In this document: positions 14,842 through 55,784 of the stretch, piece by piece
Layout: each line of letters begins with the position of its first letter
How positions within the stretch are numbered: position 1 is the stretch's first letter
Made by a program: the position numbers and the translations under genes
DNA from: Comamonadaceae bacterium
Lineage (GTDB): Bacteria > Pseudomonadota > Gammaproteobacteria > Burkholderiales > Burkholderiaceae_C
NCBI GenBank assembly: GCA_025352965.1
Contig: JANXRP010000134.1
Location: forward strand, 11,179-75,178
Length of the DNA stretch: 64,000 nt
Reading direction: 5' to 3'
The notes under the pieces: model-generated
What the model was told of the DNA's origin: nothing
Seen by the model: only the letters and a program-made list of their open reading frames with translations
Database searches by the model: none

Positions 14842-14850
14842 GGTTCAATT

Positions 14851-16620: not shown

Positions 16621-16630
16621 GGCTCTTCAA

Positions 16631-23144: not shown

Positions 23145-23217
23145 GCGGAGCTCTCTAAGGTGAAATTTTTGATAAGGCGCGAAGTTTAAGGCACATTGTG
23201 CACAGGAGAAAGATGAA

Positions 23218-23655: not shown

Positions 23656-23665
23656 AGGACTCATC

Positions 23666-24586: not shown

Positions 24587-24590
24587 TACG

Positions 24591-26060: not shown

Positions 26061-26065
26061 TCTTC

Positions 26066-27130: not shown

Positions 27131-28245
27131 AAACCGTTCGCCGCCTACTCTACGTCGATCTTGTGTCCAGCATTACCTACGTGTGCCTAGGGTTTTTAGC
27201 GTTATTCATATTTTTTGATTTAGTTGATGAGATGTCCTCTGTTGGCGTTCAGCGTTATGGATTGATACATGCATTTGCCTATGTGATGCTACAAATTCCA
27301 GGGCATCTATACGAGTTACTGCCTATAGGCGTTTTAATTGGCGGCGTATTAGTGATGGCTCGCTTTGCACAAAGCTCGGAATTCACAATTTTGCGAACCA
27401 GTGGACTAGATCCCCAGCGCGCGCTCAAAATTTTACTGATGCTAGGCGCCGGCCTTGTTTTCGTAACTTTTGTCATCGGCGACTATGCCGCGCCTCTGTC
27501 CAACCGGACGGCACAACTCCTGAAGGCCAAATACCAAGGCACAACCATTGCGGGTCAATCGGGTGCATGGCTCAAAGAGCAACAGCGCTATAGCCGCTAT
27601 GCCGTCAATGTGAGCGCCCTAGACGGTAATGGCGATATGGCACGTGTGCGCATTTTTGAGTTTGACACCAGCGGACGGATCATATCGAGCACCGAAGCAC
27701 CTCATGGGAAATTTTTAAATGACGCATGGTTGCTCACGAATGCCAAACGAATTGAGTTCCCGCAAAATTTAAAAGATGTGGCGATGGAGGCAGCTATAGA
27801 CGAAATTTCTTTAAATGTACGTCAATTACCCGAGTACCGCTGGCCCACCGAAATCAATGCGCAAATGGTATCGGTCGCGCTACTTAAACCCGAACGCATG
27901 CCCATTTATGATTTATTTCGCTACATCCAGCACCTAGACAATAACGGCCAATCCGCTCAGCTTTATGAAATTGAGTTTTGGAAAAAACTCTTCTATCCTC
28001 TAAGCTGCATGGTGATGCTCATGTTGGCACTACCTTTTGCCTACCTACATTTTCGCTCTGGCGGTATTGCTGCTTATGTCTTTGGCGGTGTGGTGACGGG
28101 CATTAGCTTCTTTTTGTTGAACAATGTTTTTGGCTACATCGGCAACATCTCGCACTGGGAACCTTGGATGGCCGCTGCCGCCCCAAGCATGATTTATTTT
28201 TGCGTCTCGCTAGCCGCATTCATGTGGGTCGTTTATAAAAAATGA
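27127..28245 (+). CDS. lptG: LPS export ABC permease LptG
   Basis: Start at 27127 (MKTVRRLLYVDL), overlapping the lptF stop as ATGA. Same YjgP/YjgQ architecture. Confidence 0.8.
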   Translation: MKTVRRLLYVDLVSSITYVCLGFLALFIFFDLVDEMSSVGVQRYGLIHAFAYVMLQIPGHLYELLPIGVLIGGVLVMARFAQSSEFTILRTSGLDPQRALKILLMLGAGLVFVTFVIGDYAAPLSNRTAQLLKAKYQGTTIAGQSGAWLKEQQRYSRYAVNVSALDGNGDMARVRIFEFDTSGRIISSTEAPHGKFLNDAWLLTNAKRIEFPQNLKDVAMEAAIDEISLNVRQLPEYRWPTEINAQMVSVALLKPERMPIYDLFRYIQHLDNNGQSAQLYEIEFWKKLFYPLSCMVMLMLALPFAYLHFRSGGIAAYVFGGVVTGISFFLLNNVFGYIGNISHWEPWMAAAAPSMIYFCVSLAAFMWVVYKK

Positions 28246-31103: not shown

Positions 31104-31726
31104 AAATAACCTCTTGCTTTGGCAACTGCAATCACATCCGCAAACACCTGCTCGATGCTTTGATTGGCTTCGATTCGCGCAAAGCGCTTCGGGTCAGCCT
31201 CTGCACGCGCTGCATAACCGCTGCGCACGGCCTCAAAAAATGCCACAGGCTGAGACTCAAACTTATCAGGCACTCGTGCTTGGCTCAAGCGCTCGGCGGC
31301 AAGCGCAGGCGCAAGATCAAACCAATAGGTCAAATCGGGTTGCAATCCAAGCTGAACCCACGACTCTAAAGTGGTCAAGGTCTGCAAGTCAAAACTGCGC
31401 CCCGCGCCTTGGTAGGCAAAGGTGGCGTCAGTAAAGCGATCGCACAGCACGACTTCGCCACGTGCCAGCGCAGGACGAATCACGCACGCCACATGATCAC
31501 GCCTTGCAGCAAAGACCAAAAGCGATTCAGTCAGCACGTCCATCGCATCGTTCAAAATCAAGGTGCGCAGTTTTTCGGCGAGCACCGTCCCACCTGGCTC
31601 GCGGGTCAATGTGACCTTGCAGCCCTTTGCGGATAAGGCTTCGGAAAGACCCGTGATATGCGTGGACTTGCCCGCGCCATCAATACCTTCAAAACTAATG
31701 AAGAGTCCACTGGTCTGCACGTTCAT
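31100..31726 (-). CDS. tmk: Thymidylate kinase
   Basis: 208 aa. P-loop [14 protein letters not shown], a DRF motif, and lid region. Confidence 0.9.
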
Positions 31727-32760
31727 TTCCTCCCCAAAATAAAGCGATTCACCGCTGCATTGTGCGCGGTCAACGTGCTACTAAATTCGCTACTACCATC
31801 GCCCCGCGCCACGAAGTACAAGGCTTTGGTCGGCTTAGGATTGGCTGCTGCGTCTAACGCGGCTTTGCCAACCAGCGCAATAGGACCTGGTGGCAAACCC
31901 AGGCGGGTGTAGGTGTTGTAAGGCGTATCACGCGTGAGATCCGTGCGACGAATGTTTTTGCGCTGCGCCAAAAAGCGCTCACCCATGCCGTAAATAACCG
32001 TTGGGTCGGTTTGCAGCAGCATCCCAATGTTTAACCGATTAACAAACACGCCAGCAATCTCGGCGCGGTCGGTGGGCTTGCCCGTTTCCTTTTCAACGAT
32101 GCTGGCAAGCACAAGCAATTCGTCTGCGGTTTTAAGTGGTGTCGGCTGCAAACGACTATCCCATGCGGCTTGCAGGCGTTTATCCAGAGTCGCAGCAGCC
32201 TGCTTGTAAATGACATAGTCACTGGCGTTCTTAGCGTAAGCATAGGTATCTGGGAAGAAACGCCCCTCTGGCAACATCCCGCTTTTGCCAAGCGTCGTCA
32301 TCAGCTCCGCATCACTCAAATTTGCAGTTGTGTGCTTGAGAGAAGGCGCCGCATTGATGGCTACGCGCATTTGCGAAAACGTCCAGCCCTCAGGAATCAC
32401 CAGTGAAAGCATGATCTCATCGCCCGACACCATCTTGTGCAACATGCCATAGGGTGTGAGGTTGGATTCAATCGCATACGTGCCCGCCCGAATCGGCTTG
32501 CTGCGTCCGTATGCAAAGCTGGCAGCGCGAAACCACACGGCAAGCAGCGTTTGATTAGCACCTGTGGCTTTGGCGACACTAGTAGCTGCGCCTTTACTAG
32601 AGCTGCCCGCATCGATGGTGACCTCGGTGCCAGCACCGCCATCCGATGGCAGCAAGGGCATATTCAGCCACCAAAGCGCACAGCCTAATAGCAATGCAAC
32701 AGGAGCGATGATGAGTAAAAACAATCGGCGAATCATGGAGGGTGATGATAATGGAGGCAT
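31723..32760 (-). CDS. mltG: Endolytic murein transglycosylase MltG (YceG family)
   Basis: 345 aa. N-terminal TM anchor and a YceG domain ([14 protein letters not shown]). The start is ambiguous; an alternative ATG at 32736 gives [10 protein letters not shown]. Confidence 0.85.
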
Positions 32761-33535
32761 GGAAACTTCGACCGACAGATTTAATCATCTCGCAATGGAT
32801 AGCGAAGATCACCTTGCGGTGATTCGTGCTACGGGTGCGGATGCTGCTTCGTTTTTGCAAGGTCAGCTCAGTAACGACTTTGTGCTTTTAAAGCCAAACC
32901 AGTGGCAGCTCGCCGCGTATTGCAGCCCCAAAGGACGGATGCTGGCCAGTTTTTGGGGTATCAAGCTTGCCAGTACGCCTGATTCACAAGACATTTGCCT
33001 CGTGCTCTCCCAAGACATCGCAGCGACGACCCTCAAACGCCTCTCCATGTTTGTGATGCGCGCCAAACTGACGCTTACCACTGCGGACGACATGCTGCCC
33101 GAGCTCTTTAGCGTGCACGGCCTAGCCGCATGGTCTGAACACGAGGTAGCGCGCGGCGTTGCACGTATCACCGCGCCGCTGGTCGATTTATTTGTGCCGC
33201 AAATGTTGAATTACGAATCCATTGGCGGCGTGAGCTTCAAAAAGGGCTGCTATCCAGGGCAAGAAATCGTGGCTAGAAGCCAGTTTAGAGGTGCAATTAA
33301 ACGCAGGACATACCTAACTAGGATAGAAGACGGGCAAGCCACGTCCCATGTGGGCTACGAGGTGTTCGCTGCTGACAATGATGAATCAGTTGGTATGGTT
33401 GTGCAAACGGACGGCGATCAAGCTTTGATTTGCATTCAAACTAGCAGCGCAGGCGCGGATTTACGGCTTGGATCAAAAGATGGCGCAAGGCTCAAGATGC
33501 TGGATTTGCCGTATCCGCTTTTAGAAGATATTTAA
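32759..33535 (+). CDS. ygfZ: Folate-binding Fe-S cluster repair protein YgfZ family
   Basis: Signature KGCYPGQE (FKKGCYPGQEIVAR) and N-terminal FLQGQLSND. The start is uncertain: 32735, 32759 or 32796 are all in frame. The track start at 32564 would lie deep inside mltG. Confidence 0.65.
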   Translation: METSTDRFNHLAMDSEDHLAVIRATGADAASFLQGQLSNDFVLLKPNQWQLAAYCSPKGRMLASFWGIKLASTPDSQDICLVLSQDIAATTLKRLSMFVMRAKLTLTTADDMLPELFSVHGLAAWSEHEVARGVARITAPLVDLFVPQMLNYESIGGVSFKKGCYPGQEIVARSQFRGAIKRRTYLTRIEDGQATSHVGYEVFAADNDESVGMVVQTDGDQALICIQTSSAGADLRLGSKDGARLKMLDLPYPLLEDI

Positions 33536-34392
33536 ACCAACCGCTTGCGCATCTCAATATGCGCAATGCCTGCTTCCTCAAAAATCTCGCCGTGCGGCGC
33601 AAAACCAAACTTAGCGTAAAAATCTTGCGCACTAGTCTGCGCGTGCAGCACAGCTTCTAAATCTCCCCTGCTGGAAGCCTTATCCAGTAAGGCCTGCAGC
33701 ACGATTTCACCAAGACCGCTACCGCGCAGCACGCGCTTGACGGCCATACGTCCGATGCGTGACACCCCATTTTCGGCAGGCAACAAGCGCCCCGTCGCCA
33801 TGGGTTGTTCCAAGCGGTTGAAGACGACAGCGTGTTCGCTTTTGGCATCCCATTCGTCATGTTCAAGCGCCAATGGCACGCCCTGCTCTTCTACAAAAAC
33901 CTCGGTACGAAGCGCCATCGCGCTATTGCCAAGAGCGTTCCAATCGTCAACTTCAAGGCGCGTCATCGGTTTGCCCGCTTCAAAATCAAGGAGCCAGTTG
34001 CGCAAAACATCGGGCACGCTTTGTGATTTCTGCGTGGCAGGATTGGCATAAACATAAACCAATTCGCCCGTGACCAAGAGCTTGCCATCGCAAAAGATAG
34101 CGCCTGTAAACGTCATGGACGAATTGCCAATGCGTGAAAGCTTCAAGCACACACGAAGGCGATCTTCGTACCGCGCTGAAGCTTTGTATTCGACAACGGC
34201 CTTGGCTACGTACAAATCTCCGCCGAGCTGATGCATGGATACCTCGTAAGGCATCGCCAGGGCACGCCAGTATTGGGCTACCGCAGTATCAAAGTACATC
34301 AAATAATGACCATTGAAAACAATTTTTTGCATATCCACCTCGACCCAGCGAACGCGAAGCGTGTGGGAAAAGCGAAAATCTGAGAGAGTCAT
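33532..34392 (-). CDS. Fusion protein: N-terminal 4HBT/YbgC-like acyl-CoA thioesterase + C-terminal GNAT acetyltransferase
   Basis: 286 aa. The N-terminal half has a hotdog pattern (VRWVEVDMQKIVFNGHY). The C-terminal half has GNAT motif A (VKRVLRGSGLGEIVLQ). Confidence 0.7.
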   Translation of the reverse strand: MTLSDFRFSHTLRVRWVEVDMQKIVFNGHYLMYFDTAVAQYWRALAMPYEVSMHQLGGDLYVAKAVVEYKASARYEDRLRVCLKLSRIGNSSMTFTGAIFCDGKLLVTGELVYVYANPATQKSQSVPDVLRNWLLDFEAGKPMTRLEVDDWNALGNSAMALRTEVFVEEQGVPLALEHDEWDAKSEHAVVFNRLEQPMATGRLLPAENGVSRIGRMAVKRVLRGSGLGEIVLQALLDKASSRGDLEAVLHAQTSAQDFYAKFGFAPHGEIFEEAGIAHIEMRKRLV

Positions 34393-34446
34393 AGGGGATT
34401 TCCTAGAATAGGATGATTATTTGTTGTATCAGGGGAGTTTATCCAG

Positions 34447-35601
34447 ATGGCTTTTATCAATTACGTCACGCAAATTCAATTCGACTTTGGCGCGATTAGC
34501 TTGCTCAAGTCCGAATGCCAGCGCGTCGGCATCACCAAACCACTCATCGTGACCGACGCGGGGGTCAAAGCAGCTGGGATTTTGCAAAAAGCACTCGATC
34601 AACTTGGCGGTATGGCGATCGAAGTCTTCGATCAAACGCCGTCCAACCCGACCGAAGCGGCTGTGATGGCGGCTGCCCAGCAGTATCAAAAGAGCGGCTG
34701 TGACGGCCTCATTGCCGTGGGCGGCGGCTCTGCCATTGACTGTGCTAAAGGCGTGGCGATTGCAGCGACACATACAAAATGTGAGCTCGGGTCGCTCAAA
34801 ACTTTTGCCACGATTGAAGGCGGCTCTGGGCTCATTACCGACCGCGTCGCACCCTTAATTGCCATTCCCACGACTAGCGGCACGGGATCTGAAGTGGCCA
34901 GGGGCGCCATCATCATTGTGGCTGATGGCAGGAAGTTAGGATTTCATTCGTGGTTTTTAGTGCCCAAAACTGCCATTTGCGATCCCGATCTCACTCTGGG
35001 CTTACCACCAAAACTCACGGCCGCCACGGGCATGGATGCCGTCGCACACTGTATGGAGACCTTTATGGCGCCGCTGTTCAATCCACCCGCAGACGGCATT
35101 GCACTGGACGGTCTTGCGCGCGCTTGGGCGCACATTGAACGTGCCACACAAAACGGCTCAGACCGTGAGGCGCGCAGGCAACTCATGAGCGCGTCCATGC
35201 AAGGCGCAATGGCCTTCCAAAAAGGACTCGGCTGCGTGCATTCGCTTAGCCACAGCTTGGGCGGCGTTAATCCCATGCTGCATCACGGCACGCTCAACGC
35301 CATGTTTTTGCCTGCCGTGGTGGCGTTCAACGCGCAGGCGGAATCGATTCAAACCGAGCACCGACTAGACCGCATGGCTTATGCCATGGGGCTTGGCGAG
35401 GGACGAGGGGACGATATTCCAATCGCCATTAAAGACATGAACATGAGGCTTGGACTTCCTTCAGGGCTTGCGGCTATGGGCGTGACCAGCCAGCAGTTTG
35501 GTAACATCATCAATGGCGCGCTTGCAGATCACTGCCATAAGACCAACCCTGTGATTGCTAGCGCTAGTCAATATATCGAAATGCTAACCCTTTCAATGTA
35601 A
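34447..35601 (+). CDS. Iron-containing (group III) alcohol dehydrogenase
   Basis: 384 aa. Contains GGGSAIDCAKG and metal-binding His motifs (AVAHCMET, HSLSHSLGG). Confidence 0.85.
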   Translation: MAFINYVTQIQFDFGAISLLKSECQRVGITKPLIVTDAGVKAAGILQKALDQLGGMAIEVFDQTPSNPTEAAVMAAAQQYQKSGCDGLIAVGGGSAIDCAKGVAIAATHTKCELGSLKTFATIEGGSGLITDRVAPLIAIPTTSGTGSEVARGAIIIVADGRKLGFHSWFLVPKTAICDPDLTLGLPPKLTAATGMDAVAHCMETFMAPLFNPPADGIALDGLARAWAHIERATQNGSDREARRQLMSASMQGAMAFQKGLGCVHSLSHSLGGVNPMLHHGTLNAMFLPAVVAFNAQAESIQTEHRLDRMAYAMGLGEGRGDDIPIAIKDMNMRLGLPSGLAAMGVTSQQFGNIINGALADHCHKTNPVIASASQYIEMLTLSM

Positions 35602-35648
35602 ACTTAAGCCTTATTTTTATCGATACCTCATCCGTCCAACATTAGATT

Positions 35649-37487
35649 ATGGAATTCAATTTAGAACGCTTCGAGCATGCAGTTAATACACGTCAATATG
35701 AAGCGTCGGGACGCGAATTGATGCAGCTCTTGCAGATGTTAGATAACCACTATGGCAACTTAGCACCCAGCTTTTCAGCGAAGCCCATGGCCGCATTGGC
35801 TAATGGGGATGATGTTGATGCGCACATTTTGACTCGCATCGCCTCGGCAATCTCCCACCTATTTTTGGATCCAGGGTTCACACTTTCGCCACAAGGCTAT
35901 GCACAAGCATTGCAACTACAGCGATGGCTGGGCACACTATTTGCCGTGACGCCCTTTCGAAATGCCGATCACGTGATTCGAGCCTTGAATAACCTTGGCT
36001 GGGACAAGGATGAGCTACAGCTAACCCCAGACAACTTAAATAAATTTGCCTTACTGGCTTTCCCTGAATCCGAGATTCCTATCAATTTGGATGGGCTTTG
36101 GGCTGCCAACCCGGCCTTGGCGGTCAGTTTGTGCATGCTATGGATGGCGCCAAGATTTTTGGCCTCGCCGTCTGCACATGCCAAGCGTGAACTTGTATTG
36201 GGCTGGCTACCAGAAAAATTACAACAGATGGATTTGGATCAACTTCCGTCTGGCATCATGCACGATGTCTACATGCATTGCAGCTATGCGGATCGACCCG
36301 ATCGTCATCGCATCAAAGGTGCGATCAACGTTATCGTGCGCAACAAAATGCTGCAAAACGGGTTATCGGATGCACCACCACTAAACCCTTTGCCCAAAGG
36401 TGAAAAACCAACCATGTTGGTCGTACTCGAATGGTTCAATGGATCCCACTCGATTTACCGCACGCACTCGACCACCATGCGTGCTGCGCGCCGCCACTTT
36501 CATGTTGTCGCGATGGGCTATCCTAGCAACGTAGACGACTTAGGGCGTGCCGTATTTGATGAATTTATTGAAATCAAAGGTGGCTCGATGATCGAGCAAA
36601 TGGCACATATCCGTGATACGGCTATTGCCAAGCAAGCACGACTTTTCTATATGCCAAGTGTGGGGATGTTTCCGCTCACCATGTTCGCCTGTAATTTGCG
36701 CTTCGCTCCGCTACAAGTGATGGCGCTCGGCCATCCTGCTACCACGCATTCACCGCACATGGACTACGTTGTGGTCGAAGACGACTACGTCGGCCTTGAG
36801 AGCTGCTTCTCGGAGAAGCTACTACGTCTGCCCAAAGATGCGCTGCCCTATGTGCCCTCTGCCGCAATGCCAGAAAACTTAGTTCCCAATCTGCGTGACA
36901 ACGACGGCAAAAATCCAGACATAGTCAAGATTGCGATTTGCTCCACCACGATGAAGCTCAACCCGCGTTTTTTGCAAACGTGCAAAGCGATTGTGGACAC
37001 AGCCAAAACACCTGTGCTTTTCGAGTTTATGGTTGGACAGGCAACCAGTTTGATACATCCGCAAGTTAGCCGCGTGATTAAGCAATTCTTAGGGGATAAC
37101 GCGCATGTCAATCGCCATCTGGGTTATCCAGAGTACATGGCCAAAATCAATGAATGCGATATGTTCATCAATCCATTCCCTTTTGGTAATACCAATGGCA
37201 TTATTGACACCTTGACTTTAGGTCAAGTCGGCGTGTGCCTCAACGGTACAGAAGTATTCGAGTGCATTGACCGCGGCTTGTTTGGTCGTCTTGGCGTGCC
37301 CAGCTGGATGGCCACTAATTCCATCGAAGAGTACATCGCCGCAGCGGTACGCTTGATTGACAACCCAAAAGAGCGTCTCAAATTACGCCGCGAAATGATT
37401 GCTAAAAATGGTGTGCAAATTTTGTTCACAGGACGTCCCGAGATTTTTGGCGACCGGTTGATTGAACTGGTACACAAAGTGGCCTAA
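35649..37487 (+). CDS. HMW1C/ApNGT-like cytoplasmic N-glycosyltransferase (GT41, no TPRs)
   Basis: 612 aa. All-alpha N-domain plus GT-B. The motif strings HDVYMHCSY, HSIYRTHSTTM, LGHPATTHSPHMDYVVVEDDYVG, LLRLPKDALPYVPS, STTMKLNP and NPFPFGNTNGIIDTLTLG match my recollection of the H. influenzae HMW1C / A. pleuropneumoniae NGT family. They also parallel the OGT motifs GYPGT..MDY and NGHTTGMD. Confidence 0.75.
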   Translation: MEFNLERFEHAVNTRQYEASGRELMQLLQMLDNHYGNLAPSFSAKPMAALANGDDVDAHILTRIASAISHLFLDPGFTLSPQGYAQALQLQRWLGTLFAVTPFRNADHVIRALNNLGWDKDELQLTPDNLNKFALLAFPESEIPINLDGLWAANPALAVSLCMLWMAPRFLASPSAHAKRELVLGWLPEKLQQMDLDQLPSGIMHDVYMHCSYADRPDRHRIKGAINVIVRNKMLQNGLSDAPPLNPLPKGEKPTMLVVLEWFNGSHSIYRTHSTTMRAARRHFHVVAMGYPSNVDDLGRAVFDEFIEIKGGSMIEQMAHIRDTAIAKQARLFYMPSVGMFPLTMFACNLRFAPLQVMALGHPATTHSPHMDYVVVEDDYVGLESCFSEKLLRLPKDALPYVPSAAMPENLVPNLRDNDGKNPDIVKIAICSTTMKLNPRFLQTCKAIVDTAKTPVLFEFMVGQATSLIHPQVSRVIKQFLGDNAHVNRHLGYPEYMAKINECDMFINPFPFGNTNGIIDTLTLGQVGVCLNGTEVFECIDRGLFGRLGVPSWMATNSIEEYIAAAVRLIDNPKERLKLRREMIAKNGVQILFTGRPEIFGDRLIELVHKVA

Positions 37488-37506
37488 CTCATAGAACCTA
37501 AATAGC

Positions 37507-38745
37507 ATGCGACTTATTTATTGCGACACTGCACTGGCCGATTTAAATGGACACTACTATTCAGAGTGTCTGATGACAGTCAATGCGTTTGCAAATGCAG
37601 GTATTTTTTCGCATATTTTTGGTCATGTCGCGGCTAAAGATGTTAATTTAGCGCCACTGAACGTCGCACCTCATTTTCGAACGCAGAAGTGGGAATGGCT
37701 TGGTTTTTCTAACGACTTTTTATGCGGCCCCATAGAGTCACTACTCATTTCAGCCCATATCACCGCAGAAGACTTGGGGCGAATTGAAGGCTGGACAAAC
37801 ACTGACATCTTGTGCTGGAATCACATTACGCCTTCGGACTTATTTGCCTTAGGACTGTGGGGTAAAAATTTGCCCATAGACCAGACACCGCATTTTCTAT
37901 TGCACGTAGGTATACAGCCAGGTATCTACCCTATTGTTGAAGATGGCGAGCTATCGGGTCGCTTCGAAATTCTTGATCGCACCTCTGCTGAGCAATTCAG
38001 ACTAGCGGCTAAGCGTCTGCCGCAGCACATAAAAGATCGGGTTAAATTTATTGCATACGACGAATTAGCGGCCAAAAGTTACCAAGAAGTCTTGTTGCAA
38101 CCGGTGCATGTTGTGCCATTTTGCTCGTATGAAAATGCTAATCCTATTCAACGAAGCTCGTCAAAAATTACTGTCTCATACCTAGGCGTCCCCAGAGAGC
38201 CCAAAGGCTTTGGCACGGCCCCTTATGTTATTGAGCAACTCTTAACACAGACGCCTGAACATGTGAACTTTATGGTTCAGTTAGGTGGGGATTGGAAAAT
38301 TGGGGGAGACAGATCAAAAGATGAGCAGCAAATGATGCGTGATCTTGCAAGCAAAAATCCACGCGTCAAGGTTGTCCAAGGACCGCTTACCGAAACCGAG
38401 TGGCAAGGCATGTTAGACAACACCGACTTGCTGCTCCTTCCCTACCATCAGCAATCTTATGCCAGTCAAACTTCTGGCCCCTGCATGGAGGCGCTAGCGA
38501 ATGGCATTGTGCAGGTTGCAACCAATAAAACAACCATGGAGTTTGCACTTAAACGGCATGGTATGCCAGGTGTGTTGATTGACGAACCCACGGTTGAGGA
38601 AACGGTTCGTGGCGCGTTATCCGCCATTGCAAATTATGATGCGCTGGCCGTAAAGGCTTATGCTGCAAGCCAGCAATGGAGAAGTTTTCATAACCGTGAG
38701 AATTTTGCTGCACATGTTTTTAGACTATTGCAAGCTAACGTTTGA
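37507..38745 (+). CDS. Soluble GT-B fold glycosyltransferase (GT4-like)
   Basis: 412 aa with no TM segments. C-terminal Rossmann half with LLLLPYHQQSYASQTSGPCMEALANGIVQV resembles the GT4 E-x7-E region. Starts 19 nt after the NGT gene. Confidence 0.55.
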   Translation: MRLIYCDTALADLNGHYYSECLMTVNAFANAGIFSHIFGHVAAKDVNLAPLNVAPHFRTQKWEWLGFSNDFLCGPIESLLISAHITAEDLGRIEGWTNTDILCWNHITPSDLFALGLWGKNLPIDQTPHFLLHVGIQPGIYPIVEDGELSGRFEILDRTSAEQFRLAAKRLPQHIKDRVKFIAYDELAAKSYQEVLLQPVHVVPFCSYENANPIQRSSSKITVSYLGVPREPKGFGTAPYVIEQLLTQTPEHVNFMVQLGGDWKIGGDRSKDEQQMMRDLASKNPRVKVVQGPLTETEWQGMLDNTDLLLLPYHQQSYASQTSGPCMEALANGIVQVATNKTTMEFALKRHGMPGVLIDEPTVEETVRGALSAIANYDALAVKAYAASQQWRSFHNRENFAAHVFRLLQANV

Positions 38746-38797
38746 GTTAAAGAAATTGAATGCAACCAATCAGAACACAAGGACGAAAGGATAGGAT

Positions 38798-39526
38798 TTG
38801 AACCAAGTCAATAAACCGATTGTCACCCAAATTGAGGAGGCAGTTCAAAACATTCCCGGATGGTGCCCCATTGACCAACTGTTGTTGTTATTTACCCTCG
38901 CCCATACCAGTGCCGATCTAGACGGTGATATTCTTGAACTTGGATCGTGGTGCGGACGCTCAGCCGTGGCTATGGGAATGGCGATCCAGTTATCAGGAAA
39001 CTCAAAGCTCCACTGTGTTGATTTGTTTCCTAAAAAAGAAGACTGGCACAAAACTCCTGATGGTGACTATTCTCTTTCGGTCAATATTGATGATCGTAAT
39101 GTCGTGGCATACGCCCACGGTGGACAAACTGTTTGGGCGGAAGCCTTCGAGCGAGATATTGCTCCTGTTTACGAAAAATTTCCAGGCACCCTTGAGGCTT
39201 TCAATACTTTCGTTGCAGAAAATGGATTGTCAGAACAACTCATTCCTTTTAAGGGCGACTTACAAAGTTTTATCAAAAATGCGTCTTCCGGCTTGAAGCT
39301 TCGTATGGCATTTATTGATGGTGATCACAACTATCATGCGGTTGCAAAAGACATTGAAATTATTGAACGGTTTTTGGTGCCTGGCGCTTGGGTTTGTTTT
39401 GATGATGCCTTTTCGAATTATCCAGGAGTTAATAAAGCCATTGAACTACACATCATTCATAGTGGGAAATATAGTCAATTTCAACAAATGACACGGAAAT
39501 TTTTTATTGCGCGGTATATAGGGTAA
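38798..39526 (+). CDS. Class I SAM-dependent methyltransferase (Methyltransf_24/CmcI-like)
   Basis: 242 aa. Motif I GDILELGSWCGRSAV and FIDGDHNYHAV. The only plausible start is TTG at 38798. Confidence 0.6.
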   Translation: MNQVNKPIVTQIEEAVQNIPGWCPIDQLLLLFTLAHTSADLDGDILELGSWCGRSAVAMGMAIQLSGNSKLHCVDLFPKKEDWHKTPDGDYSLSVNIDDRNVVAYAHGGQTVWAEAFERDIAPVYEKFPGTLEAFNTFVAENGLSEQLIPFKGDLQSFIKNASSGLKLRMAFIDGDHNYHAVAKDIEIIERFLVPGAWVCFDDAFSNYPGVNKAIELHIIHSGKYSQFQQMTRKFFIARYIG

Positions 39527-39563
39527 TTGTGATTAGGCTCTGAATTTATAATTAACCATTAAT

Positions 39564-40514
39564 ATGAAAATACTTGTTACAGGTGCCTGTGGGTATAAAG
39601 GGCATGTTCTCGTTCCTAAGCTACTAATCAAAGGCTATAAAGTAATTGCCTTTGATCTACAATGGTTTGGGAATTTCTTAGATCCACATCCAAATTTGAC
39701 CATTATAAAAGGTGATGTTCGTGAGATAAATACTATTCCCTTAGATGGTGTGGATTGCATTATTCATCTGTCATCAATCGCAAATGATCCTTGTGGCGAT
39801 TTAGATCCCAAGTTGACTTGGGAAGTTAGCGCACTAGCGACGATGCAACTAGCTGACAAAGCGAAAAGAGCAGGTGTTAAACGTTTTATATATGCATCCT
39901 CAGGTAGTGTTTATGGAATCAAAGATGAATTGCAAGTAACTGAAGATTTAGAATTAACCCCTATCTCAGAATACAATAAAACAAAAATGGTCGCTGAGCG
40001 AGTTTTATTGAGCTACGACAATGATATGACAGTACAGATAGTGCGTCCTGCTACTGTCTGCGGCTATTCACCACGTATGCGTTTGGATGTTTCTGTTAAT
40101 TTATTAACCATGCAAGCCATTACAAATAAGAAAATTACAGTCTTTGGTGGCGATCAAGTGCGACCAAATATTCATATTGAAGACATAACAGATTTATATA
40201 TTTTTTTAATTGAGCATCCGGAATTAAAAGGTATCTACAATGCTGGCTTTGAAAATATTTCCATACTAGATATTGCAAAACTAGTGACTAAATTTATTGA
40301 TGCAGAAATAATCTTAACCCCATCTAATGATCCTCGATCTTATCGAATCAATTCTGATAAATTACTAGCCACTGGATTTAAACCTCAAAAAACAGTTTTA
40401 AATGCTATAGAAGAAATAATTGAAAAATACAATCAAGGAAAATTAAAAAATGAAGATAAATTTCATAATTTAATTTGGATGCAAAAAACTATATTAAATA
40501 AAATAACACACTAA
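39564..40514 (+). CDS. NAD-dependent sugar-nucleotide epimerase/dehydratase (extended SDR)
   Basis: 316 aa. Contains VTGACGYKGHV (GxxGxxG) and the catalytic YNKTK. Confidence 0.8.
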   Translation: MKILVTGACGYKGHVLVPKLLIKGYKVIAFDLQWFGNFLDPHPNLTIIKGDVREINTIPLDGVDCIIHLSSIANDPCGDLDPKLTWEVSALATMQLADKAKRAGVKRFIYASSGSVYGIKDELQVTEDLELTPISEYNKTKMVAERVLLSYDNDMTVQIVRPATVCGYSPRMRLDVSVNLLTMQAITNKKITVFGGDQVRPNIHIEDITDLYIFLIEHPELKGIYNAGFENISILDIAKLVTKFIDAEIILTPSNDPRSYRINSDKLLATGFKPQKTVLNAIEEIIEKYNQGKLKNEDKFHNLIWMQKTILNKITH

Positions 40515-40517
40515 CAT

Positions 40518-41117
40518 ATGAATAACGTGCACAATCTTGAAGATCATTTTGAGCAATATTCGGCTAAGTTGCAACGGATACTTGCCAGCACTGAATGGGA
40601 TAATGTATCACAGCTTGCACAAGATCTTCTATCATGTTGGAAAAGGAAGTCCCATGTATATATATGTGGTAATGGCGGTAGTGCTGGAAACGCCAATCAT
40701 CTAGCCAATGATTTTATTTATGGCATTGCAAAAATGACAGGTGCCGGATTGCGGATATCAAGCTTATCCACAAATACCTCAGTTATTACCTGCTTAGCGA
40801 ATGATATTGGTTATGAAAAAATTTACTCAGAGCAACTTGCAGTACTTGGTCAAAAGAATGATCTTCTTATTACATTAAGTGGCAGTGGAAATTCCTCCAA
40901 CATCATAAATGCTCTCAAGCAAGCAAAGGAGATGGAGATAAAGTCATACGCAATACTAGGATATGATGGCGGCGCTTGCAAAGAAATTGCAGATATATTT
41001 ATACATTTCCCTGTGAATGACATGCAAATGGCAGAAGATTTACAACTGATATCAGGTCATATGATTATGCAATGGCTCTATAACAATAAAAATCAGATTC
41101 AATCAAATATTCATTGA
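40518..41117 (+). CDS. SIS-domain sugar-phosphate isomerase, GmhA-like paralog
   Basis: 199 aa. Contains VYICGNGGSAGNANHLANDF and TLSGSGNSSNI, as in phosphoheptose isomerase. Confidence 0.75.
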   Translation: MNNVHNLEDHFEQYSAKLQRILASTEWDNVSQLAQDLLSCWKRKSHVYICGNGGSAGNANHLANDFIYGIAKMTGAGLRISSLSTNTSVITCLANDIGYEKIYSEQLAVLGQKNDLLITLSGSGNSSNIINALKQAKEMEIKSYAILGYDGGACKEIADIFIHFPVNDMQMAEDLQLISGHMIMQWLYNNKNQIQSNIH

Positions 41118-41150: not shown

Positions 41151-42308
41151 ATGTTAAATAAAAAAAATATAATTTTAATGGGGATGCAAATATCCGATCG
41201 AATAATATTGATGGGAAAATTATGGAAGAATTTAAATCATACTGTAATTTTACTATATTGCAATGAGAGTATTGTTTTCACAAACTTAAAAAACGAATCA
41301 TTTGATGTCATAATAAAAGCACAAAATGCTGATGAATTATTAACCATAGCAATGAAAATCAGCAACTCAATTTTTCATTATTTCAACTACGGCCCCGATC
41401 AACTTGGATATTATCTTTATTCAAATAAATTCACTTATATATATGATTATAAGGATTTATTTTCAAACGTAGTACATCAAACTATTGATGATAACTCATT
41501 AGCAATTGAAAAAGAGATTGTAAAAAACTCTGTTGCCATTACCCGTAGGGATGAGCAAATATTTTACTATCTAAAAATGAATAATATTGATTATGATCTA
41601 GAAAAAATAATATATTCCCCAGGCTATTTTAACAAAGAGATTGAGTATGAAAAAAAAGTCATATCAAATCTATCAAATTATTATGTAGATAAACCTATCA
41701 AAATAATTATGAGTGGCGGCTACTTATCGGAAAGTAATCCTGAATCTATATTATATGAAGGCATATCACATTTAGTTAAACAATTTGCAGGTAATGGACT
41801 GGAAATTGATTTGATTGGCAATTTTTCATCCTCTTTATCACATGAAGCCAGCAATTTCCCATTGCTCACTGAGCTTGTTAGTAGAAAATGGGTGAATATT
41901 TTACCTATGACTAATTCAGAGGATTTTGATAATGTTTTATTAAATTATGATTTTGCAATGCATATGTTTAATTTTGATGTAATTGAATCAGATTACACGA
42001 TTCAATTTAAAAATTCAAATTTATTAGATTACGGCGGAAGCGCTAGAATATACTCATTTATAAAAGCTAATCTTCCAATCATCCTTGGAAAATCGCTACC
42101 TCATATTAAAAATATATTGGAAAATTCAGGGTTCGCAATTGAATACCGTGATGAATACAAAGACTCCATGAAGAATATTTTAAATAATTATAGAGTAGCA
42201 AATTATAAAAAAGAAATATATCCATATCGAGATAAGTTCAATGATAGAGTTGCTACGATTAAATTTAAAGAAAACATAAAACAAATTGGAAAGGAAATAT
42301 ATGCGTGA
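41151..42308 (+). CDS. Hypothetical protein; possibly a very divergent GT-B-like enzyme
   Basis: 385 aa, extremely AT-rich codons, no TM segments, and no motif I can name. Two Rossmann-like halves are suggested (NIILMG..., IKIIMSGG...IDLIGN...). The coding call rests on ORF length and operon packing. Confidence 0.4.
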   Translation: MLNKKNIILMGMQISDRIILMGKLWKNLNHTVILLYCNESIVFTNLKNESFDVIIKAQNADELLTIAMKISNSIFHYFNYGPDQLGYYLYSNKFTYIYDYKDLFSNVVHQTIDDNSLAIEKEIVKNSVAITRRDEQIFYYLKMNNIDYDLEKIIYSPGYFNKEIEYEKKVISNLSNYYVDKPIKIIMSGGYLSESNPESILYEGISHLVKQFAGNGLEIDLIGNFSSSLSHEASNFPLLTELVSRKWVNILPMTNSEDFDNVLLNYDFAMHMFNFDVIESDYTIQFKNSNLLDYGGSARIYSFIKANLPIILGKSLPHIKNILENSGFAIEYRDEYKDSMKNILNNYRVANYKKEIYPYRDKFNDRVATIKFKENIKQIGKEIYA

Positions 42309-42999
42309 AATTGAAAAAAAAATCCGCGCCTTTGAAATGCGATTGCAAGCCAATATGAAGGAAGTTTTTTGTCCAGTTCATTTGTCACTAGGGCATGAGT
42401 CGGTGGCAGCAGACTTACATGAAGTTATGCAGTCTGGTGATTGGCTATTTTCAACACACCGGAATCATCATCATTATTTAGCAAAGGGCGGATCAGAAGA
42501 AAAGCTTTGGGATGAAATAATGGGATTAAAGTCTGGCATCAATGGTGGATTTGCTGGCTCACAAGCGGTTGTAGATCCAAGCATTAATTTTCACTCTAGT
42601 GCAATATTAGGTGGCCTTATAGGCGTTGCAGCAGGGACTGCAATGGCTTTAAAATTAAATAATAGCAATGATATATCGATTTGTGGCATAGGTGACGCAG
42701 GAACTGAGCAAGGTGTATTTTGGGAGAGTCTAAACTTTGCTGCATTGCATAATTTGCCTGTTGCATATATTTGTGAAAACAACGGAAAGTCTGTTGATGC
42801 ACTAATTGAAGAAAGGCAGGCAATGCCTATCAGCTCAAGAGTTGCAGCTTTTGGAGTCACTACATTTAATAATGTGAAAGTAGCTATCGATTTTTGTAGA
42901 AAAGAAAAAAAACCTGTATTTTGCGAAATTAAAGTCAACTTAGAATGTGCACACATCAACATGGCAACCATGCTTGATTTGTGTGCGCATACAGCTTAA
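42301..42999 (+). CDS. Thiamine-diphosphate-dependent dehydrogenase E1 alpha-like subunit (short form)
   Basis: About 233 aa. Contains HLSLGHESVAADL...STHRNHHHYLAKGG (the E1-alpha HLxxGQEA...YRxH pattern). The ThDP motif is GIGDAGTEQGVFWESLNFAALHNLPVAYICENNG (GDG...NN). The start is placed at the ATG at 42301 after AAGGAA. Confidence 0.7.
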   Translation: MREIEKKIRAFEMRLQANMKEVFCPVHLSLGHESVAADLHEVMQSGDWLFSTHRNHHHYLAKGGSEEKLWDEIMGLKSGINGGFAGSQAVVDPSINFHSSAILGGLIGVAAGTAMALKLNNSNDISICGIGDAGTEQGVFWESLNFAALHNLPVAYICENNGKSVDALIEERQAMPISSRVAAFGVTTFNNVKVAIDFCRKEKKPVFCEIKVNLECAHINMATMLDLCAHTA

Positions 43000-43020
43000 T
43001 ATATTTTGAAGGTATTCATA

Positions 43021-43677
43021 ATGAATATGAATTTAAAAAATACAAAAAAAACATTTGCTTCAGAAATAAATCGTGCGCTTCATGACTCATTAGAGGCAGA
43101 TTCAAACGTAGTCGTTGGTGGGCAACTCGTTAAGTATGGAGTTGCTGGTTTGACAACTGGTCTTTATGATAAATTCAAGAATCAATTTATTACATACTCT
43201 GTATCGGAATCTTTAATGAATTCTAGTGCGATGGGATTAGCACTTGCTGGCAAGCGTGTCGTTATGATTCATGTCAGGATTGATTTTTTAGCTAGCGGTA
43301 TGTGCGCGTTAGTCAATCATGTCCCAATATGGTATAAAAAAGGATTGAAAATGCCTATTACCTATATTTGTCAAGTAGGTAAAGGAATGGGGCAAGGTGC
43401 CCAACATAGTAAAGATCTCACTAGTTGGTTTCAAAATTTTGAAGGCTGGACCGTAAAAATACCTGAAACGCCACAACAAGCGTTCGATATGCTTCAAGAG
43501 TCTATAAAAGGTGATAAGCCAGTTATGTATGTTATACATCGCGAGCTTTTCGATTTACCAGAAGGAAAAAAAATTACTATCAATAAAGAAATTAAATTAT
43601 GCGGAGCTAGCCAAGAGCATGAATCAGATTTTTACGGAGCTGAATTCATTTCAGCTAAAAGTAAACTTATAAAGTAA
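43021..43677 (+). CDS. E1 beta-like subunit (transketolase pyrimidine-binding domain only)
   Basis: About 218 aa. FASEINRALHDSLEADSNVVVGGQLV...YSVSESLMNSSAMGLALAGKRVVMIH follows the E1-beta Pyr-domain pattern. The C-terminal transketolase domain is absent. Confidence 0.7.
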   Translation: MNMNLKNTKKTFASEINRALHDSLEADSNVVVGGQLVKYGVAGLTTGLYDKFKNQFITYSVSESLMNSSAMGLALAGKRVVMIHVRIDFLASGMCALVNHVPIWYKKGLKMPITYICQVGKGMGQGAQHSKDLTSWFQNFEGWTVKIPETPQQAFDMLQESIKGDKPVMYVIHRELFDLPEGKKITINKEIKLCGASQEHESDFYGAEFISAKSKLIK

Positions 43678-43734
43678 GCTTCTCCGAAAGTAAAAAATCG
43701 CATCTAACCGCATTCAGTAGTTAAAAATTTTATA

Positions 43735-44997
43735 ATGAACATAAAAATATTAAATGATTATGATTCCTTTGAGCTAGCTAATGGGAGTAAGCGCGGGGAT
43801 TTTGATATCGTTTTATATGGTGCTGGTACAGCTGTAAGTTCGTATGCCAGAATGGCGCTAGCAGCGCTCCGTCATCTAGGTGTTGAGCCTCTATGCTTTA
43901 TAGACGACGACCCGAAAAGAATTGGTGAATCATTTTTAGGTATTCCTATTTTTAAACCTGAATATTTAAATTTATTAGATAAAAAATGCATTGTGCTTGT
44001 GTCAAGTAACTATTTTCCAAGCATTACGAATACGCTCCAGCGACTAAATTATCAAGGTCTTCTTTATAGCTTGACTCCACTTCTGCGATCAAGCGCGCCT
44101 GAAGCCTTTGAGTCGCTAATGTCTTTTGATGAAGTATTGCGGCGATTACACACGCATCATTCCAAACTTGAAAGATTTAGTTCAGCCGAAAATCTCAATA
44201 AACCTGTAGTCTTAAACGCTATCGATATACAAGTGACCGAGCGTTGCTCAATGAAATGTATTGACTGTTCAAATTTAATGCAATATTACGAGCAGCCTAA
44301 GGATGCAAACACAGAGGATTTTTTAAGTAACATCGCCACTCTCATCCGGTCCGTACAGCGCATTGATGATGCCCGAGTTTTGGGAGGGGAGCCTTTTATG
44401 TATAAAGACTTGCCTCAGATCCTAAATTTACTTTCTCACAGTGAAAAAATTGTGAGAGTTACAGTATATTCTAATGGAACTTTCGTTCCTAGAGAAGATA
44501 TATTAAATGCACTTATTCATCCAAAAATAGAAGTGGAAATTACTGACTACGATGAACTTTCAAAAAAACATGATCAAGTCGTAAATACATTCAAAAATCT
44601 TCATATTCGATATATCACTCATAAACCACAAAATTGGACTGATTCGGCTAGGATTGTTAAAAATAATAAAACTGTGAATGAGCTTAATACAATGTTTGAA
44701 AGATGCTGCGTCAATGATGCATTAACACTTTTGCATGATAAGCTTTATCATTGTCCATTTTCAGCAAATGCATATAATTTAAAAGCAATACCTGATGATT
44801 CAACGGATTACATTGAATTTCCTTCTATTGAAAAAAATGAAAATATTCAAGAAAAAATAAATCAATTTTATTTCAAAAAAAATCATTTATCAGCTTGTCA
44901 ATATTGTTTAGGTCGAGATTTTACTCAAGAGGCAGTTGTAGCTGCCATACAGACAAAAAAAGCAATTCCAATCCCTGTCGTATGGGTAAAGAATTAA
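43735..44997 (+). CDS. Radical SAM enzyme with N-terminal Rossmann-like module and Cys-rich C-terminal (SPASM/twitch-like) region
   Basis: 420 aa. CxxxCxxC is present (ERCSMKCIDCSN). C-terminal cysteines are CCVND...HCPF...ACQYCLG. The N-terminus reads DIVLYGAGTAV...CFIDDDPKRIG. Confidence 0.75.
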   Translation: MNIKILNDYDSFELANGSKRGDFDIVLYGAGTAVSSYARMALAALRHLGVEPLCFIDDDPKRIGESFLGIPIFKPEYLNLLDKKCIVLVSSNYFPSITNTLQRLNYQGLLYSLTPLLRSSAPEAFESLMSFDEVLRRLHTHHSKLERFSSAENLNKPVVLNAIDIQVTERCSMKCIDCSNLMQYYEQPKDANTEDFLSNIATLIRSVQRIDDARVLGGEPFMYKDLPQILNLLSHSEKIVRVTVYSNGTFVPREDILNALIHPKIEVEITDYDELSKKHDQVVNTFKNLHIRYITHKPQNWTDSARIVKNNKTVNELNTMFERCCVNDALTLLHDKLYHCPFSANAYNLKAIPDDSTDYIEFPSIEKNENIQEKINQFYFKKNHLSACQYCLGRDFTQEAVVAAIQTKKAIPIPVVWVKN

Positions 44998-46373
44998 TAA
45001 AAATTTCATTCATAATACCCACATTCAGATCCACTCTGAATGGGTTAATTAATTATATTGAAAAAATATTGATTAAAACTAAGCTAGATGCAGAAATTAT
45101 TATTATAAATGATTTGCATACTAGGGTTTTATGTATCCATGACTTTCCTGATAAATTTGAATTTTTAAATATTAATATAATTAACAATTTAGAAAATAAA
45201 GGGCCTGGATATTCTAGAAATATAGGTATTTCTAGTGCAAAAAATTCATATCTATGTTTTTTAGACGATGACGATGACTTATCTATAGAGGGGTTAGAGA
45301 AGCTAAAACTACTTTGCAATGATGCAGACTTAATTTGCCTCAAATTTTTTGATTCAAAAGGCACCTTTTCAAACCATTCTATTGTTAAATCTTTCCCTAA
45401 TGGAGCCAGCTACACTGGAGATTTTTATGTTAAAACTATTAATAAGTTAGGATTTTTGGCTTCTCATTGTCAACCATATTTATTTCAAAAAAAATTTTTA
45501 AATAACAACAATCTAAAATATCCAAATACTTACATTGTCGAAGATATCTCTTTTGTAACGGCATGCCTCATTCAATGTAAAAAAATATCTGTCTATAATT
45601 TTGATTTTTATATTTATGCATCCCGATCTGGCACTTTGAAAGAGGATGCTAATTTTTTACGACTTATTGACATTTTTTTCGCCCAAAATTGGCTTCAATC
45701 TTATTTTTCAAAAAATTTTGAAGCTGAAAAAAAAGAATTATTAAAAAAAACTATTACCTTATTAAATTTACTTTTCATTTGCCGTGTTATTTATAACGAA
45801 ACTAATTCATTTCAAAGAAATAATGCATCTTATTTTGATGAAACATCAGACAAAATTTTACATTCAATATTGAACAGTGAAGAAATAAATCAATATTTAG
45901 AAAAAATTCATTCGAATAATTACTCAAAATCAATTAGTAACCAATCTGCGCAAACCATAACAAACGAACTAGGCTATTATTTTTCACACATTAGAAATAA
46001 AATTAAAGAAAAAATAATTTCAAAAACTAATCCGCTTGAAATCACATTATTATATTGTTATGGTCCCATATCAATTGGTTATTTTTTAATGTTTAAAAAA
46101 ATTAATCCCATGTCTAAAATTTTCTTTATTGATGACAATATAAATAGTCAACAGAAAAAAAATATCTCTTATGGAGAATATACAATGCGTGTCGAAGAAT
46201 TTATCTCTAATAATAATTTAAATTTAAAAAAATGTGATTTAAAAATTATAATTTGTCATCTACATTTTCATGTGATAAAAAAAATACATGCAAAATCAAT
46301 TCGCGATTTCAAAAAATTTAGCAATGCTAATTTTTCTCTCACGATTAATGATTTATATACAGTTTTTGATTAA
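44982..46373 (+). CDS. Family 2 glycosyltransferase with about 220-aa C-terminal extension
   Basis: Start at MGKELIKISFIIPTF (44982), overlapping the radical SAM gene by 16 nt. The GT-A motifs are IIINDLHT, GPGYSRNIG and FLDDDDD. Confidence 0.75.
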   Translation: MGKELIKISFIIPTFRSTLNGLINYIEKILIKTKLDAEIIIINDLHTRVLCIHDFPDKFEFLNINIINNLENKGPGYSRNIGISSAKNSYLCFLDDDDDLSIEGLEKLKLLCNDADLICLKFFDSKGTFSNHSIVKSFPNGASYTGDFYVKTINKLGFLASHCQPYLFQKKFLNNNNLKYPNTYIVEDISFVTACLIQCKKISVYNFDFYIYASRSGTLKEDANFLRLIDIFFAQNWLQSYFSKNFEAEKKELLKKTITLLNLLFICRVIYNETNSFQRNNASYFDETSDKILHSILNSEEINQYLEKIHSNNYSKSISNQSAQTITNELGYYFSHIRNKIKEKIISKTNPLEITLLYCYGPISIGYFLMFKKINPMSKIFFIDDNINSQQKKNISYGEYTMRVEEFISNNNLNLKKCDLKIIICHLHFHVIKKIHAKSIRDFKKFSNANFSLTINDLYTVFD

Positions 46374-48565: not shown

Positions 48566-48617
48566 AATCAACACAAGATTCTATAAACATCGCTGAAATA
48601 GCAACTCTAATTGACAC

Positions 48618-49598: not shown

Positions 49599-49609
49599 GC
49601 GTCAAAATA

Positions 49610-50176: not shown

Positions 50177-50192
50177 ATTTAAAAGGTTAAGT

Positions 50193-52336: not shown

Positions 52337-52349
52337 TTGGACTGCCGCA

Positions 52350-53240: not shown

Positions 53241-53252
53241 AAACCCCCGATC

Positions 53253-54164: not shown

Positions 54165-54179
54165 TCAGCGTCTCTTTGC

Positions 54180-55767: not shown

Positions 55768-55784
55768 AAAAGAACTTAAAGAGC

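Follow-up and report, generated by a model that had tools for sequence, protein, structure and literature searches.

N-glycosyltransferases (NGTs) are prized in glyco-engineering for cytoplasmic protein N-glycosylation without lipid carriers. To our knowledge, their glycans have so far been only mono- or di-hexoses, or dextran in Actinobacillus pleuropneumoniae, and natural extension of an NGT product is known only from a few Actinobacillus species, in which Agt makes a polymer of glucose. The closest described loci are rimO-ngt-agt of A. pleuropneumoniae, whose agt encodes an alpha-1,6-glucosyltransferase, HMW1A-HMW1B-HMW1C of Haemophilus influenzae and EtpBAC of enterotoxigenic Escherichia coli (ETEC). 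The A. pleuropneumoniae enzyme, ApAgt, belongs to family GT4 and is more than 50% identical to AmGGT, for which crystal structures were reported in 2025 (PMC12159676). A 2014 review lists the Burkholderiaceae among NGT-bearing families and separates NGT genes linked to two-partner secretion (TPS) from "isolated" ones (PMC3983070). Here we analyze an NGT gene from a freshwater Comamonadaceae bacterium, carried on a 64,000-nucleotide stretch of contig JANXRP010000134.1 (hereafter, the window). The initial annotation had singled out a two-gene unit at 35649-38745 as a mirror of ngt-agt. Both open reading frames (ORFs) are exactly as claimed, but the unit continues to ~54.9 kb, and we find the more interesting feature to be an NGT that anchors a strain-variable sugar cassette devoid of membrane proteins.

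An HMW1C-like N-glycosyltransferase

The NGT gene (35649-37487, forward strand, ATG start) encodes a 612-amino acid (aa) cytoplasmic protein whose membership in the HMW1C/ApNGT type, a subfamily of glycosyltransferase family GT41, is well supported by sequence comparison, its exact activity being predicted. An all-alpha AAD domain at about residues 2-233, with Pfam matches to HMW1C_N (residues 2-143, 1.8e-22) and HMw1_D2 (148-233, 3.2e-27), precedes the GT-B domain; there is also a short GT41 match (1.8e-6), and Pfam detects no TPR repeats, in agreement with the architecture first proposed. When Protein Data Bank (PDB) sequences were searched, AaNGT of Aggregatibacter aphrophilus (8p0o/8p0q) matched query residues 7-605 at 8.7e-179, and ApNGT matched residues 4-607 at 6.8e-178 (3q3e; 5.9e-176 for 8j30), whereas OGT-type GT41 enzymes were far weaker matches (1e-7). 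The NGT matches go far past what chance would produce, and identity to both AaNGT and ApNGT is 47%. The protein also aligns end to end with NCBIfam NF049992 ("UDP-glucose:protein N-beta-glucosyltransferase") at 732.7 bits, which is below the equivalog cut-off of 1000 bits; NCBIfam thus leaves exact functional equivalence uncertified, and family membership stands on the other evidence.

Alignment to characterized NGTs covered 17 residues that bind the donor or the sequon, every one of which is kept. Those that recognize the +2/+3 positions of the sequon are intact (R169, H205 and D206-V-Y-M209, equivalent to ApNGT Arg177, His214, Asp215 and the DVYM motif), as are those of the donor site (H267, S268, R271, G361, H362, T433, K436, Q464, H490, Y496, T515-N516-G517 and D520). 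Within the latter set, H267/S268/R271 correspond to ApNGT His/Ser/Arg 276/277/280, T433 to T438, Q464 to Q469, and K436 to the phosphate-binding Lys K441. The initial annotation had tied its assignment to this lysine and to the GNTNG loop; K436 and the loop (T515, N516, G517, D520) are both in place, and the four peptide strings that it quoted, HSIYRTHSTTM among them, all occur in the translation. The peptide- and donor-binding roles of the mapped residues come from experiments (PMC10507012, PMC10466321).

One member of the HMW1C family, Yersinia pestis HmwC, is an O-GlcNAc transferase that uses UDP-GlcNAc and carries a Ser variant (PMC11329713). Like HmwC and the bacterial OGT-type enzyme XcOGT, the window NGT belongs to the GT41 superfamily; it is set apart by an AAD domain in place of TPR repeats and by Thr433 with Gln464, typical of UDP-Glc N-glucosyltransferases, instead of the HmwC Ser variant. 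This UDP-hexose-type pair disfavors an O-GlcNAc transferase of the HmwC kind. With the H. influenzae and ETEC systems the protein shares its family and its predicted chemistry, the transfer of a UDP-hexose onto Asn in N-X-S/T. In contrast to those systems, neither tpsA nor tpsB adjoins the NGT in the window, whereas many of the other Burkholderiales and Pseudomonas NGT loci examined have the order TpsA-TpsB-NGT. Judging from the conserved sites, the NGT is most likely functional, moving Glc from UDP-Glc onto Asn of N-X-S/T sequons in proteins that are exported afterwards. These substrates are encoded outside the window.

A strain-variable cassette between the NGT and galU

Eighteen further genes follow the NGT in the same direction, to 54884, and no gap exceeds 57 nt over the 20 genes from the Fe-dependent alcohol dehydrogenase gene (Fe-ADH) upstream of the NGT to NTP2. 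The resulting cassette covers 37.5-54.9 kb (~17 kb) and is low in GC, at 0.46 in its first gene, GT412, and 0.26-0.45 thereafter, versus 0.51 in the flanks; the NGT gene, at 0.495, is near the flank value. On the right stands galU (54868-55878, reverse strand), convergent with the cassette. Its product scores 354.3 bits against TIGR01099, over the cut-off of 326.8, and is the UTP-glucose-1-phosphate uridylyltransferase that makes UDP-Glc, the NGT donor.

The closest contigs are metagenome-assembled genomes (MAGs) of freshwater Comamonadaceae, consistent with the earlier impression of Burkholderiales-like housekeeping genes; the nearest of them, L003, has an NGT 97-98% identical to that of the window. 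All close relatives keep the NGT (89-99% identity) and the same left flank (yceG to Fe-ADH), and galU is a conserved flank in L003 and L007, whereas the content of the interval after the NGT differs. Three relatives (L001, L004 and L007) have GT412 with variants of the heptose module described below. GT412 is absent from four others (L003, L005, L006 and L010), despite NGTs that are 89-98% identical, and different genes follow the NGT there. The L003 cassette runs from FkbM through glucose-1-phosphate cytidylyltransferase (479 bits), CDP-glucose 4,6-dehydratase (510 bits) and a DegT aminotransferase to a GT2 and a GT10-like protein, before galU; its nucleotide-sugar genes are of the CDP-dideoxyhexose type, with the 3,6-dideoxyhexose-type genes RfbF, RfbG and DegT among them. 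In L005, L006 and L010 the first gene is an SDR whose start, in the ORFs as called, overlaps the NGT stop codon by 1-4 nt, followed by GDP-mannose dehydratase, FkbM, DegT and a split transketolase. On the NGT tree, the presence of GT412 is patchy within the clade. A hypervariable, horizontally exchanged cassette is framed by the conserved NGT on its left and by galU on its right.

Hydropathy scans of six cassette variants (the window, L001, L003, L006, L007 and L010) revealed no polytopic membrane protein, and the same six lack Wzx, Wzy, Wzm/Wzt or any other ABC permease, and an initiating phosphoglycosyltransferase. Because no variant encodes a polytopic membrane protein, the cassette cannot be a self-sufficient O-antigen or capsule locus, and a classical locus of either kind was rejected. 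The likeness to hypervariable surface-glycan loci, such as the galF-gnd O-antigen locus and the hddA/hddC/gmhA heptose modules of Campylobacter lipooligosaccharide (LOS) and capsule, lies in the low-GC exchanged cassette with a conserved galU/galF-type border and in the HddA-, HddC- and GmhA-like heptose genes and methyltransferases. It stops at the flippase, polymerase, ABC transporter and initiating transferase, which the window lacks, and at the left border, which is a protein N-glycosyltransferase. The tight packing behind the NGT, or the 1-4 nt overlap in L005, L006 and L010, implies an operon-like arrangement. A scan of 34300-40000 (Fe-ADH through SDR) found promoter-like and terminator-like sites no commoner than in shuffled sequence, which neither proves nor breaks an operon.

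The second glycosyltransferase

GT412 (37507-38745, forward strand, 412 aa, ATG start) begins 19 nt after the NGT gene on the same strand and is the first gene of the variable cassette. The description of its product as a GT-B enzyme without transmembrane segments has held up: a hydropathy scan found no hydrophobic segment, and a Foldseek search with its AlphaFold model (pLDDT 65, moderate quality) returned glycogen synthase 3fro (2.4e-13), then PimA, BshA, MshA and SdgB, with TM-scores of ~0.55. It falls below the Pfam thresholds for Glycos_transf_1 and Glyco_trans_1_4 (19.3 and 20.8 bits versus cut-offs of 26.4 and 27) and has no NCBIfam match. On the strength of the model, GT412 is predicted to be a soluble GT-B glycosyltransferase of the GT4/GT5 retaining type, in an unnamed, GT4-like family.

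That family is seen only through exhaustive HMMER searching. A word-indexed search returned just nine relatives, all at least 80% identical, and a family-alignment search gained one distant member (P0153), whereas the exhaustive search recovered 2,194 representatives at E<1e-3, of which 488 had E<1e-10 and 42 had E<1e-30. The proteins are ~400 aa long. Residues kept across the family are G15-H16, R230, K233, Y313, S323 and E328; R230, K233 and E328 are nearly invariant and, by analogy only, may be the phosphate-binding Arg/Lys and the C-terminal Glu of the EX7E motif, whose first Glu is not conserved.

The arrangement resembles A. pleuropneumoniae rimO-ngt-agt in several ways. In both, an HMW1C-like NGT with the same donor and sequon residues precedes a gene on its own strand for a soluble GT-B enzyme of the retaining type, and no adhesin or TpsB gene adjoins the NGT, which makes both loci "category 2" (PMC3983070). 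A true counterpart of ngt-agt would have GT412 extend the N-linked Glc to oligo-glucose with UDP-Glc, the rest of the cassette being unrelated, and the 19-nt spacing, the shared enzyme type (Agt being a GT4 enzyme; PMC12159676) and the nearby galU, a supplier of UDP-Glc, would all fit. We nevertheless consider this unlikely. We detected no sequence relation of GT412 to Agt or AmGGT: neither GT412 nor its family profile matched an Agt- or AmGGT-named chain in PDB sequences at E<=10, the presence of the AmGGT structures in the searched copy being unconfirmed. The matches obtained were generic GT4/GT5 C-terminal domains only, the best for the family profile being that of MshA (8e-4). By these comparisons, GT412 does not appear to be an Agt-type enzyme.

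The distribution of GT412 points the same way. The gene is gone from the closest relative and, within the lineage, is found only alongside a module of HddA-like kinase, SDR, C-methyltransferase and FkbM genes; elsewhere, family members lie directly after HddA-like kinases (L088, L093 and L100) or near E1 alpha/beta pairs (L083 and L089). Since GT412 co-varies with a heptose-type pathway, an Agt-like glucose-polymerizing role is not the likeliest, and its gene neighborhood suggests a donor of the heptose type, specific to the cassette, and not UDP-Glc. The window departs from the A. pleuropneumoniae locus in other respects too: its second glycosyltransferase is strain-variable and sits inside a 17-kb nucleotide-sugar cassette, Fe-ADH occupies the position of rimO, which is missing, the predicted extension sugar is heptose-type and cassette-specific instead of glucose, and the host is a free-living freshwater bacterium. 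Thus, what survives of the proposed mirror is a soluble GT-B gene 19 nt downstream on the same strand; the resemblance appears to be one of analogy rather than homology, and the pair does not behave as a conserved module.

Gene content of the cassette and its surroundings

In this strain, ~16 genes of the cassette serve the making of heptose-type sugars and of sugars with C- and O-methylation or branches; the cassette also holds GT412 and a GT2 enzyme, and all of these lie on the forward strand. Behind GT412 lie genes for a Methyltransf_24 methyltransferase, an SDR epimerase/dehydratase and a first GmhA-like SIS isomerase (38798-41117, GC 0.34-0.43), then one for an orphan 385-aa protein (41151-42308, GC 0.27). 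Neither Pfam nor NCBIfam matches the orphan, tblastn against L001-L082 gave no homolog, and an AlphaFold model from the single sequence is too poor to use (pLDDT 36); the protein is possibly a transferase or sugar-modifying enzyme of a new kind. The next segment (42286-44997) encodes a split thiamine pyrophosphate (TPP)-dependent E1 alpha/beta-like pair (42286-43677) and a radical SAM enzyme, which are likely to serve sugar branching or modification. The two E1-like proteins are short, at 237 and 223 aa versus ~310-350 aa in L083 and L089. Split E1 alpha/beta or transketolase-like pairs recur at L083:2139-6234, L089:4878-6904 and L010:18435-20173, and such pairs may transfer two-carbon units to make branched sugars.

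The second glycosyltransferase of the cassette is a 492-aa GT2-family protein (44895-46373; Glycos_transf_2, 2.3e-12; GC 0.256) in which a hydropathy scan found no hydrophobic segments. It is followed by a heptose-type nucleotide-sugar module (46383-51125) of HldE-like, NTP-transferase, HddA-like GHMP kinase, second GmhA-like and SDR genes, all of which score below equivalog cut-offs. The 479-aa HldE-like protein (46383-47822, forward strand) is domain-swapped, with the nucleotidyltransferase at residues 3-127 and the PfkB kinase at 158-477, whereas E. coli HldE has the kinase first and the adenylyltransferase second; the same form occurs in L001 at 70% identity. The cassette ends with a sugar C-methyltransferase, an FkbM methyltransferase, an Fcl-like SDR and an HddC-like nucleotidyltransferase (51131-54884). 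In all, three SDR epimerase/dehydratases are dispersed along it, and it has two GmhA-like isomerases.

Radical SAM enzymes, split TPP-dependent E1 pairs, C-methyltransferases and FkbM are also typical of sugar tailoring in natural products, so that the cassette might instead make a glycosylated small molecule, or a free metabolite derived from a nucleotide sugar, unrelated to proteins or lipopolysaccharide (LPS). This is very improbable, as the cassette contains no scaffold enzyme (polyketide synthase, nonribosomal peptide synthetase or terpene enzyme), exporter or regulator, and the swapping from strain to strain between fixed borders resembles a surface-glycan serotype locus.

Fe-ADH (34447-35601, forward strand), the conserved left neighbor, ends 47 nt upstream of the NGT. 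Farther left, a 323-aa ORF with a GTG start (32564-33535, forward strand) overlaps yceG (31723-32760, reverse strand) by ~200 nt. Its counterpart in relatives is shorter (251-273 aa), and the long N-terminus is probably an artifact of ORF calling. An LPS-core and envelope group occupies 14059-28245 and comprises genes for a GT2, an MsbA-like ABC exporter, an AT3-SGNH acyltransferase, a WaaL/Wzy_C ligase, a GT9 heptosyltransferase, an Orn/Lys/Arg decarboxylase, an SPFH protein, an ArnT-like PMT and LptF/LptG. Between this group and the cassette stand housekeeping genes such as holB, tmk, yceG and tatD.

Tailoring enzymes beside NGTs in other genomes

The order seen in the window recurs in an unrelated contig of GC 0.41 (L083), where an NGT C-terminus (50% identity over 71 aa) stands immediately before a member of the GT412 family (24% identity); a GmhA-like SIS gene comes next, with two pairs of E1 alpha/beta genes and SDRs. 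An order of NGT, GT412-like, SIS and E1 genes thus appears to have been kept across deep divergence. Natural fusions provide a second kind of link. P0134 (1131 aa, L085:8001-11396) joins a GT412-like GT-B domain, TPR repeats and a full GT41 enzyme of the OGT type, which shows that both enzyme types can act together, and P0191 joins a GT412-like domain to TPR repeats. In L113, an NGT homolog and a GT412-like gene are neighbors in divergent orientation. The neighbors of P0134 encode a TPR protein, a prepilin peptidase, a secretin and an N-methyl pilin-like protein, so that the locus may glycosylate proteins in connection with pili or secretion.

Other enzymes accompany NGTs as well. P0076 and P0103 are NGT homologs of 817-822 aa with a natural C-terminal fusion to an FkbM-type methyltransferase (residues 653-780 of P0076), and FkbM is the next gene after the NGT in eight distant loci of the Limnohabitans/Comamonadaceae type (L030, L032, L040, L047, L052, L067, L070 and L073), as well as in L003. 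Such fusion and adjacency suggest that the N-linked sugar is O-methylated. A 588-aa fusion of a SAM methyltransferase with a heptosyltransferase-like GT9 domain directly follows the NGT in TpsA-TpsB-NGT operons (for example, L080:6940-8706) of Paraburkholderia, Caballeronia, Cupriavidus and Ralstonia (L041, L048, L049, L051, L071, L080, L081 and L082). This is another undescribed arrangement of an NGT with a second glycosyltransferase, and it occurs in cultured species.

Taken together, these several independent links make a functional tie between NGTs and such cassettes plausible. A literature search, limited to the searchable library, found no paper on these arrangements of NGTs with tailoring enzymes, and the locus in the window belongs to a wider, undescribed pattern in which tailoring enzymes travel with NGTs in environmental Proteobacteria.

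Distribution of NGT homologs

The candidates tested included more than 2,332 NGT homologs at E<1e-20, and an NGT is carried by at least 221 GTDB species, mostly Burkholderiales; the dominant genera are Herbaspirillum, Polynucleobacter, Paraburkholderia, Caballeronia, Cupriavidus, Polaromonas, Limnohabitans and Pseudomonas. The non-Pasteurellaceae background stressed in the initial annotation is therefore real, the housekeeping genes of the window being those of Burkholderiales, but it is neither unusual nor novel, since NGTs are common in this order and were reported there earlier (PMC3983070).

Two features of the public records touch on these counts. Seven clear HMW1C-like NGT homologs (P0042, P0047, P0054, P0078, P0085, P0100 and P0109) are named "peptide transporter" in NCBI/UniRef, an apparent annotation error that has spread and conceals the family in genomes of Burkholderiales. 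Several MAGs with Burkholderiales-type NGT loci bear implausible taxon labels (L052, "Akkermansia muciniphila"; L068, "Bifidobacterium sp."; L070, "Bordetella parapertussis"), and L006 (JASGCK010000004), labeled "Cytophagales bacterium", shares synteny and 90% identity with the window from Comamonadaceae. Binning contamination or mislabeling is the likely source of these labels.

Proposed coupled N-glycan elongation versus a possible lipooligosaccharide locus

The explanation that we favor, with evenly balanced confidence, is that the NGT and the variable cassette form a coupled system of cytoplasmic N-glycan elongation. The NGT would prime Asn with Glc; GT412, the GT2 enzyme or both would then add one or more sugars specific to the cassette to this N-linked glucose, still in the cytoplasm, and no lipid carrier, flippase or oligosaccharyltransferase would be needed. 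The outcome would be strain-specific N-glycans. Two parts of this are inferred: the attachment of the cassette products to N-glucose made by the NGT, and the identity of the sugar that GT412 moves.

Several observations weigh against this explanation. The NGT scores below the NF049992 equivalog cut-off, and its near-genomic GC and its conservation while the cassette varies also fit a mere flank. No acceptor was found in the 64-kb window, which contains no TpsA, TPS-domain, autotransporter or sequon-rich ORF; the highest sequon density, 1.8 per 100 aa, occurs in small proteins. No glycosyltransferase was found within 10 kb downstream of the NGT in L006 or L010. Members of the GT412 family also occur outside NGT contexts, in a dTDP-rhamnose/ABC-2 polysaccharide cluster (P0131) and as stand-alone genes (P0130 and P0135); of the 31 loci examined, 3 showed a link to NGT/GT41. 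LPS-core genes (WaaL-like, GT9, MsbA-like, ArnT-like and LptFG) are found 7-21 kb upstream, O-antigen loci classically have galU/galF as a border, and a variable cassette of soluble glycosyltransferases and sugar genes without membrane proteins is equally like an LOS or outer-core locus. Sequence by itself cannot decide between coupled elongation and an LOS locus.

If the cassette (GT412 to NTP2) were such a locus, for an LOS/LPS outer core or another surface glycan linked to lipid, its soluble glycosyltransferases would work on lipid A-core at the inner leaflet, and flipping of the product would fall to MsbA, with the NGT, a functional but mere flanking neighbor, making simple mono-hexose N-glycans on adhesins encoded elsewhere. 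We regard this as a substantial possibility, though on the doubtful side. Besides the points just given, notably the LPS-core genes (GT2, MsbA-like, AT3-SGNH, WaaL/Wzy_C, GT9, ArnT-like and LptFG), the galU border and the GT412-family member in a rhamnose/ABC-2 cluster, it would account for low-GC hypervariability typical of surface-polysaccharide loci and for genes of classic LPS sugars, dideoxyhexose-type in L003 and heptose in the window. Yet none of the six variants has Wzx/Wzy, Wzm/Wzt or an initiating transferase, and the unrelated holB, tmk, yceG and tatD part the cassette from the LPS-core genes. The NGT, moreover, lies close to the first gene of the cassette or overlaps it, its order with GT412-like, SIS and E1 genes is found in an unrelated contig, and GT412-GT41 and NGT-FkbM fusions exist.

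Should coupled elongation prove wrong, the window would hold an ordinary NGT beside an LOS-type glycan island. Accessory enzymes next to NGTs are in either case widespread in environmental Burkholderiales, as FkbM, methyltransferase-GT9-like fusions, the GT412 family and whole nucleotide-sugar cassettes. We tentatively extend the proposal, with confidence a little short of balanced, to the view that strain-specific soluble glycosyltransferases (GT412, GT2 and others) build NGT-primed Asn-Glc into complex, serotype-like N-glycans with modified heptoses, dideoxyhexoses and methylated or branched sugars from an exchangeable cassette, free of lipid carriers and oligosaccharyltransferases, probably in other environmental bacteria as well. 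If these enzymes do act on Glc-Asn, they would constitute a natural cytoplasmic assembly of diverse N-glycans and a source of new soluble elongating enzymes for engineering, and free-living freshwater bacteria would display strain-specific "serotypes" of protein glycans.

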